A DNA stretch of 64,000 nucleotides, from NCBI RefSeq assembly GCF_000027125.1, contig NC_017627.1; one strand, 5' to 3'. The notes below the pieces were generated by a model. The model saw only the letters and a list, made by a program, of their open reading frames with translations, was not told the DNA's origin and did no database searches. The DNA is from Escherichia coli 042 (GTDB taxonomy: Bacteria; Pseudomonadota; Gammaproteobacteria; Enterobacterales; Enterobacteriaceae). Position numbers and translations under genes: made by a program. Numbering within the stretch: position 1 is the first letter of the stretch; every line of letters starts with the position of its first letter. Below are positions 63,594 to 64,000 of this stretch, one piece after another.

Positions 63594-63785
63594 TCACCTG
63601 TTTCTGCTGCCCTGTAAGATGTAGTGACCGCCCAGGAAAACCGCCTGCTGATTCGCCACAAAATCGCAGATTTCATCAACAATCTGCGCGGTGGTGAGCG
63701 GTTTCTGCCCCATTTCACGACGCCGCGCATTAATCACGGCCCTGTAATTACGCAGAATTTCGCGGGTTTCCGTGCTGATATTCAT
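63594..63785 (-). CDS. small hypothetical protein (63 aa), start overlapping the upstream ORF stop
   Basis: MNISTETREILRNYRAVINARRREMGQKPLTTAQIVDEICDFV..; ATGA overlap suggests coupling. Confidence 0.45.
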   Translation of the reverse strand: MNISTETREILRNYRAVINARRREMGQKPLTTAQIVDEICDFVANQQAVFLGGHYILQGSRNR

Positions 63786-64000
63786 GACATCGTCTCCCCG
63801 TCCAGCGCCTGCAACACAACGTCCATTGCTTCGCGTTCCTCCCTGACGAATGCGTCACCGTCGCCCCCGTTCTCACTCCCGACGGCATACAGGCGCTTCA
63901 TTTCACTGCCTGCCAGCGCCATCACTTTTTCCAGCATCACCGCCGGGACTGTCACCTGACGGCTGGCGTGCTTTTCCTCCATCAGTTCACGAACAACGTC
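63782..64000 (-). CDS. hypothetical protein, 3-prime portion (may start beyond the window)
   Basis: Open frame to the window edge; acidic ..VGSENGGDGDAFVREEREAMDVVLQALDGETMS. Confidence 0.4.
   Translation of the reverse strand, partial: DVVRELMEEKHASRQVTVPAVMLEKVMALAGSEMKRLYAVGSENGGDGDAFVREEREAMDVVLQALDGETMS

Follow-up and report, generated by a model that had tools for sequence, protein, structure and literature searches.

What kind of module is formed by two small genes that overlap in the leading region of a plasmid? The question is raised by the end of a 64,000-nucleotide stretch of DNA from Escherichia coli 042 (contig NC_017627.1; hereafter the window), where two minus-strand open reading frames (ORFs) share the nucleotides ATGA. 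The original prediction, made from the letters alone, regarded them as a translationally coupled pair of the sort that is often a toxin-antitoxin or anti-defence pair. The two genes are probably yubJ and yubK, which close a klcA/ardB anti-restriction operon in an IncF-type leading region. Comparison across lineages shows that the conserved unit is an anti-restriction gene with yubK and not yubJ with yubK, and that the ATGA overlap is lineage-specific. Genes of the yubK type almost always stand 3' of a gene for one of two unrelated anti-restriction proteins, ArdA or KlcA.

Identity of the two genes

On the plus strand, positions 63782-63785 read TCAT, which is ATGA on the minus strand. The start codon of the downstream ORF (ATG, 63785-63783) overlaps the stop codon of the upstream ORF (TGA, 63784-63782), and the predicted overlap is thus read directly from the sequence. 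The downstream ORF (63594..63785, minus strand) is a complete gene for a small basic protein of 63 amino acids (aa), yubK (also yffA or 'AreA'). The upstream ORF had been described as cut by the window edge, and its frame (DVVRELMEEKH...GETMS, followed by the stop) does run uninterrupted up to base 64000, comprising 72 codons and the stop codon. This segment (63782..64000, minus strand) is the 3' half of yubJ (yfeC) and encodes residues 69-140 of a 140-aa DUF1380-like protein, the full gene of which is found in pChi7122-2 and F. The upstream gene is therefore short and did not turn out to be a long, unrelated one. A 66-aa ORF starting from ATG 63982 is an artefact of the window edge, since the frame stays open to base 64000.

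A megablast search of a plasmid collection with 63400-64000 as the query gave, among the matches listed, at least 3836 plasmid records with a query coverage of 80% or more and, for the most part, 95-99% identity; to thousands of IncF-type plasmids the DNA of the region is 99% identical. Conjugative plasmids from Escherichia, Klebsiella, Salmonella and Shigella make up the bulk of the records, and at least 3836 that span the junction keep the ATGA overlap. In pChi7122-2 (99.5% identical), the order along transcription is an antirestriction protein (PF03230, KlcA/ArdB type), a 140-aa 'DUF1380 family protein' and a 63-aa hypothetical protein, and klcA lies 46 nt ahead of yubJ. All three genes recur in F, where klcA/ardB is called yubI/yfgB, and the 63-aa gene of the window is presumably yubK of F. 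The order of yubJ and yubK, the ATGA overlap, the Shine-Dalgarno (SD) sequence and the upstream klcA/ardB are all the same in F and here. The two YubK proteins differ in one residue (R15K), the two yubK genes in five synonymous and one non-synonymous change, and the DNA of the region is 95-96% identical. In UniRef, the F copies are named YubJ (YUBJ_ECOLI) for the 140-aa protein and 'AreA' (Q9S4W6) for the 63-aa protein, and the pair is annotated as yfeC and yffA in an IncI-gamma/K plasmid (R64-style).

When F is mapped onto the window, oriT falls at about 51.3-51.65 kb. The yubJ/yubK pair, on the minus strand, lies within the leading region some 12 kb from oriT and points towards it, in agreement with the predicted location of a small overlapping pair in a plasmid leading region. 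Its template is the transferred strand, which is the plus strand of the window.

These genes are already known and catalogued, without an assigned function in the literature found. What has been written on yffA and yfeC consists only of epidemiology papers ('unknown function') and of reports on unrelated chromosomal namesakes. In a table of leading-region families, row 6 has 4048 members, carries the names Plasmid, AreA, YffA and YchA, and is labelled 'Uncharacterized' (Samuel and Burstein, PMC11541004); by size it ranks sixth among the uncharacterised leading-region families. YfjB/HerB (PMC13370423) is a different, ParB-like gene.

The conserved partner of yubK

The neighbourhood was compared at 37 yubK-like loci taken from contigs with divergent homologues, plasmid records, 23 species-representative genomes (found with a seven-sequence YubK alignment), pChi7122-2 and F; comparison loci are cited below by L numbers where they have to be told apart. 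ArdA is encoded directly upstream of the yubK-like gene at 18 of the 37 loci and KlcA at five, and at 12 others KlcA is followed by one or two yubJ/DUF1380-like genes and then by the yubK-like gene. The remaining two (L009 and L019) have no recognisable anti-restriction gene upstream. Because an anti-restriction gene precedes the yubK-like gene at 35 of these loci, whereas a yubJ-like gene lies between the two at only 12, it is the anti-restriction gene that forms the conserved unit with yubK. At none of the 18 loci with ArdA directly upstream is a yubJ-like gene inserted. Genes of the yubJ type are confined to KlcA-type operons, where they directly precede yubK when present, and DUF1380 paralogues are also found without yubK.

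The junction between the yubJ-like and yubK-like genes varies by lineage. It is a 4-nt overlap in IncF and IncI-gamma/K plasmids, with the identical ATGA in F, pChi7122-2 and one IncI-gamma/K plasmid; it is an 11-nt overlap in L005, a gap of 13-15 nt in L028 and L029, and a gap of about 50 nt in L014 and L038. On contig L023, a yubK of the IncF type (97% identical) lies directly behind klcA without yubJ, and it is preceded by the spacer TTAACGGACGGGGCGGCAATGCCGCCCCTGTAAAGGAG..., which is the spacer that precedes yubJ in pChi7122-2 (L001). The shared spacer in the absence of yubJ indicates that yubJ is an insertion/deletion polymorphism. It is an optional gene between a conserved hairpin with its SD sequence and the start of yubK, and its placement there yields the ATGA overlap. 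A 4-nt ATGA overlap is among the commonest junctions between bacterial genes, and taken alone it is unremarkable.

The arrangement resembles that of the leading-region anti-restriction operons encoding ArdA (ColIb-P9/IncI) or KlcA/ArdB (RP4, R64 and F), being the same operon in the same orientation to oriT. In some plasmids, klcA and ardA stand in tandem before a single yubK-like gene (a Klebsiella IncFII(K) plasmid, L018 1481-2692, and L035-L037), and some plasmid records have two or three yubK-like copies.

Conservation and predicted structure of YubK

The YubK protein of the window is 95-100% identical to the copies in F and other plasmids. A HMMER search of 1.84 billion cluster representatives gave 103 YubK matches, and the full-length homologues have 58-67 aa and 41-76% identity. 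An alignment of 18 sequences has 58 columns without gaps, in which Y14, N19, I56 and Q58 never vary and C40 and Q46 hardly vary. Selection was analysed with yubK from the window, from F and from nine comparison loci, 11 sequences in all. The proportion of synonymous differences (pS) is 0.5-0.97, near saturation, against a proportion of non-synonymous differences (pN) of 0.2-0.43, and the ratio of the corresponding rates (dN/dS) is 0.05-0.46 where computable. Differences at codon positions 1, 2 and 3 number 1147, 939 and 1994, respectively. The 63-aa frame, on whose conservation the original prediction depended, is thus a real protein-coding gene under purifying selection and not an annotation artefact.

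The AlphaFold2 model of YubK (predicted local distance difference test, pLDDT, 90.8) consists of a helix at residues 5-24, a second helix at 32-44 and a β-hairpin at 48-51/54-57, and the protein has a pI of 9.8. Alignment and model together suggest that R8, R/K12, K/R15, N19, R22 and R23, which fall within a 100° arc of helix 1, make up an exposed basic face. On a helical wheel, the hydrophobic residues I10, L11, Y14, V17 and I18 lie opposite this face. The predicted topology is α-α-β-β and not the β-α-α of ribbon-helix-helix (RHH) proteins such as the N-terminal domain of TraM, NikR and the antitoxins MazE, ParD and TacA, whose N-terminal strands pair within a dimer and contact DNA. YubK, which is basic and only 63 aa long, resembles neither ArdA, an acidic DNA mimic, nor KlcA, which has a fold of its own. 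It has a weak match to DUF7420 (E 0.03), and a scan of the 18 alignment members gave nothing consistent.

Natural in-frame fusions join YubK, or its C-terminal part, to pieces of other proteins of leading regions, namely DUF1281, KlcA, the N-terminus of YubJ or an unrelated 'MNENSTLNALICRH...' protein. The fusion proteins (P0011, P0020, P0121, P0122, P0129 and P0172) come from related contigs and not from the window; P0011 is found on 94 contigs, one of them of 2.2 Mb. Such fusions suggest that the start of yubK is a recombination hot spot.

A homologue of YubK is also encoded by Escherichia phage Seurat, in which gp64 has 58 aa (L017 4001-4177; NC_027378 47554-47730). The two proteins share a predicted fold and are matched by Foldseek with an E of 2.9e-4 and template modelling (TM) scores of 0.79/0.86, and by hhalign with a probability of 97.7% at 28% identity. 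Genes similar to that for gp64 are found in 17 Seuratvirus-like phage records (tblastn E 0.02-0.7). No ArdA or KlcA neighbour of Seurat gp64 was recognised, and gp64 is located about 2 kb from a primase. The occurrence of a homologue in 17 lytic Seuratvirus-type phages argues for a host-directed role over a purely plasmid-internal one.

YubJ and the gene junction

Full-length YubJ has 140 aa, of which 31 are aspartate or glutamate, and a pI of 4.35. It matches Pfam DUF1380 (PF07128) with 20.6 bits (E 5e-4), below the gathering cut-off of 26 bits. In BLASTP it is 31% identical over 111 residues (E 4e-10) to a bona fide DUF1380 paralogue of the neighbouring methylase operon, and this paralogue itself scores 184.7 bits against PF07128. 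From these similarities, YubJ is best described as a divergent relative of DUF1380. With DUF1380 proteins of the YubF/YcgB type it shares an N-terminal MYGT/MYCT motif, an all-helical and acidic character and the same leading region, whereas its C-terminal third, with a GGDGD motif, is different; the DUF1380 family has no known function. The model of YubJ is moderate (pLDDT 75) and depicts a generic helical bundle, in which no similarity to the acidic DNA mimics ArdA and Ocr was found. Neither was a match to toxin or antitoxin families in Pfam, NCBIfam or PADLOC.

An SD sequence for yubK, GGGGAGA, is located within the coding sequence of yubJ (63793..63799, minus strand), 8 nt from the ATG, and a GGAG or GGGAGA motif at equal spacing from the start codon is found in all yubK-like loci examined. 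No sigma-70-like promoter was detected in 63200-64000, and none that would serve yubK internally. Folding of the mRNA at the junction is no better than that of shuffled sequence (z +1.1), which argues against coupling via an RNA structure that sequesters the SD sequence. A lone terminator-like match within yubK does not exceed chance level. Neither ORF of the pair is a chance frame; both are genuine genes. Two ORFs of 111 aa (63395-63730, minus strand, and 63624-63959, plus strand) that share DNA with yubK and yubJ, in different frames or on the opposite strand, are most likely by-products of GC-rich sequence. At the equivalent site of F, a 118-aa hypothetical protein is annotated on the opposite strand.

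Non-coding elements around the operon

A hairpin-rich non-coding element (63484..63593, minus strand; core 63528-63558) directly follows the stop codon of yubK and delimits the operon on its 3' side. The core is present, no more than 35 nt from the yubK stop and with at most four substitutions, in 24 of the 37 sequences inspected (36 comparison loci and the window itself), and the element is visibly related in several sequences beyond these. It occurs as a single copy in the window, where none is expected by chance, folds as three hairpins and has no match in Rfam. Its consensus is GGCAGGCG..CGCCTGTCAGCCCGCGCGAAAACCC-GGCAGGCTGNCGCCTGCC, and its conservation exceeds that of the YubK protein. 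Variants of the middle hairpin that appear, by inspection only, to be compensated are GGCAGGC/GCCTGCC, GTCATCCC/GGGATGAC and GTGTGCGCC/GGCGCACAC; RNAalifold returned only two short helices for the element, with the middle hairpin misaligned by MAFFT.

A second hairpin lies between the stop codon of the anti-restriction gene and the next gene. It has a GC-rich stem of 7-9 bp and a loop of 4-6 nt, is followed by an SD sequence of the AAGGAG type, and is common to ArdA- and KlcA-type operons. In L001 it occupies 6809-6854, just past the end of the window, and it is also found in L003, L007, L010, L012, L023, L025, L028, L030, L031, L038, L039 and L043. At least seven stem sequences keep the pairing, as judged by inspection of sequences that MAFFT had placed out of register. 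In L028 the hairpin is followed by a run of T, like an intrinsic terminator. This hairpin may act as an attenuator or may stabilise the RNA.

On its downstream side, the operon is bounded by an Frpo-like (class 1) single-stranded-DNA (ssDNA) promoter element (62788..63224, plus strand). It is 92-93% identical to the Frpo2 region of F and 83% identical to the Frpo1 region, and as a single strand it folds into one long stem-loop (-123.7 kcal/mol, z -6.2). Frpo1 and Frpo2 are ssDNA promoters required for early expression of the leading genes downstream of them (PMC9849209). By analogy, the element at 62788-63224 would drive the next operon (a 76-aa ORF, DUF3560 and a methyltransferase), with its hairpin presumably forming in the transferred strand. 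The window has three Frpo-type (class 1) copies (53816-54313, 59403-59853 and 62788-63224), whereas two have been described in F. In F, yubK is followed by Frpo2 and then by ssb; here the third Frpo-like copy and an extra operon precede the ssb operon.

The extra operon preceded by the third copy comprises the 76-aa ORF (62331-62561), DUF3560 (60918-62279) and the methyltransferase, and is missing from F at the corresponding position. Rfam family AS-pc01 (RF02875, 'antisense to pHK01_035') matches 62556-62652 on the plus strand with 94 bits (E 1.6e-16), above the gathering score, and this match is antisense to the start of the 76-aa ORF.

Upstream of Frpo2, RNA sequencing of early transconjugants has revealed the induction of two more operons, with homologues of KlcA and M.EcoGIX, and a similar ssDNA promoter hairpin, termed 'class 2', stands before both ardA and klcA (PMC12672017). 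The class-2 promoter of F has been named ssp2 in a 2026 preprint (bioRxiv 10.64898/2026.01.09.698686). For both F and pESBL, early expression in transconjugants has been reported at the level of operons (PMC12672017; bioRxiv 10.64898/2026.01.09.698686).

Possible role of YubK and alternatives

The operon of yubJ and yubK would be transcribed from the incoming strand via the class-2 promoter ssp2 and induced in transconjugants. Since the genes are read from the incoming transferred strand, their products would be made in the recipient in the first minutes after entry. YubK is tentatively regarded as an early establishment or anti-defence accessory, and not as a toxin or antitoxin, in which the basic face of helix 1 binds a polyanionic target; we consider this quite possible, if short of probable. 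The target might be a nucleic acid, or else a host defence enzyme with an acidic surface, and YubK might either extend the protection given by ArdA and KlcA or counter a response of the host to them. The ATGA overlap, in this lineage, would only tie the translation rate of yubK to that of yubJ. The anti-defence half of the original prediction has contextual support only, from the position of the genes at the end of an induced klcA/ardB operon (PMC12672017; bioRxiv 10.64898/2026.01.09.698686), and its 'pair' was the wrong unit, the partner of yubK being the anti-restriction gene.

Several considerations tell against this assignment. A biochemical activity of YubJ or YubK is given by neither experiment nor homology. 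Neither protein has a significant match in Pfam, NCBIfam, PADLOC or PHROGs, and searches of PDB sequences with the profile and with single sequences were empty. The neighbours of Seurat gp64 are all unannotated and provide no functional clue. In the window itself the operon is partial: klcA, ssp2 and the first half of yubJ would lie beyond its end, as deduced from near-identical plasmids. The 37 loci compared are related and not phylogenetically independent, and their counts represent a pattern, not independent events. Moreover, the linkage to anti-restriction genes could come from shared regulation by the same class-2 promoter and not from a shared function.

In the main rival explanation, YubK is not an anti-defence effector but a small protein that binds DNA or RNA and regulates its own operon or the neighbouring ssDNA elements. 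Its sites could be the ssp2 promoter/roadblock, the hairpin after the anti-restriction gene or the element 3' of the yubK stop. Such a regulator would agree with the class-2 ssDNA promoter that ArdA and KlcA operons have in common (PMC12672017), both of which YubK tracks, and with the description of ssp2 as a replication roadblock, the protein needs of which are not fully known (bioRxiv 10.64898/2026.01.09.698686). It would also agree with the conserved basic helix face, with the superposition of the two YubK helices on RHH DNA-binding domains, and with non-coding hairpins that flank yubK and are better conserved than the protein. However, lytic Seuratvirus phages, which have the homologue, have no conjugative ssDNA promoters, and conversion to the double-stranded form already accounts for the shut-off of the operon (PMC9849209). 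The analysis identified no operator-like repeats and no match of YubK to a DNA-binding family. A regulatory role is considered unlikely.

A role for YubJ is retained in the view that, in the IncF lineage, YubJ and YubK are a two-protein anti-defence module, an acidic-basic heterocomplex whose stoichiometry is fixed by the overlap. The charges of the two proteins are indeed opposite, the overlap is found in at least 3836 plasmids and, with 11 nt, in the distant lineage of L005, and yubJ-like genes occur only in KlcA-type operons directly before yubK. Against this stand the gaps of 13-50 nt in other lineages that have both genes and the contexts in which yubK occurs without yubJ, L023 included, and the YubJ model is only moderate. 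A dedicated heterocomplex appears quite improbable.

The proposal that one product is toxic and the other neutralises it, as in a type II toxin-antitoxin pair that stabilises the leading region or aborts infection, is very hard to maintain: the genes are small, adjacent and co-transcribed (ATGA overlap, and no promoter-like site between them or upstream within the window), but neither product matches a toxin or antitoxin family in Pfam, NCBIfam or PADLOC, the two do not occur as a unit across lineages (a yubJ-like gene at 12 of 37 loci, yubK without yubJ in L023, and DUF1380 paralogues without yubK), frameshifted, truncated or fused versions of either gene are common in natural plasmids, and the likeness to RHH domains is undermined by the different topology of YubK.

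Possible significance for plasmid establishment

This analysis corrects the tempting view that small overlapping gene pairs of leading regions are toxin-antitoxin pairs. Among the loci compared, few genes accompany the anti-restriction genes of enterobacterial conjugative plasmids as constantly as yubK, and its carriers include the IncF and IncFII(K) plasmids by which antibiotic resistance is spread. It is possible, though doubtful, that the YubK-type proteins, which lack a Pfam entry and rank sixth in frequency among the gene families of plasmid leading regions, are an unrecognised anti-defence family obligately deployed with ArdA or KlcA and also acquired by lytic Seuratvirus phages, the flanking hairpins being part of the module. 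If so, the family might act against a host system left uncovered by ArdA and KlcA, or against a system triggered by the anti-restriction proteins themselves, which would amount to a second-layer counter-defence. If YubK helps the plasmid to evade the defences of the recipient, it would be a cheap and well-defined target for work on plasmid establishment.
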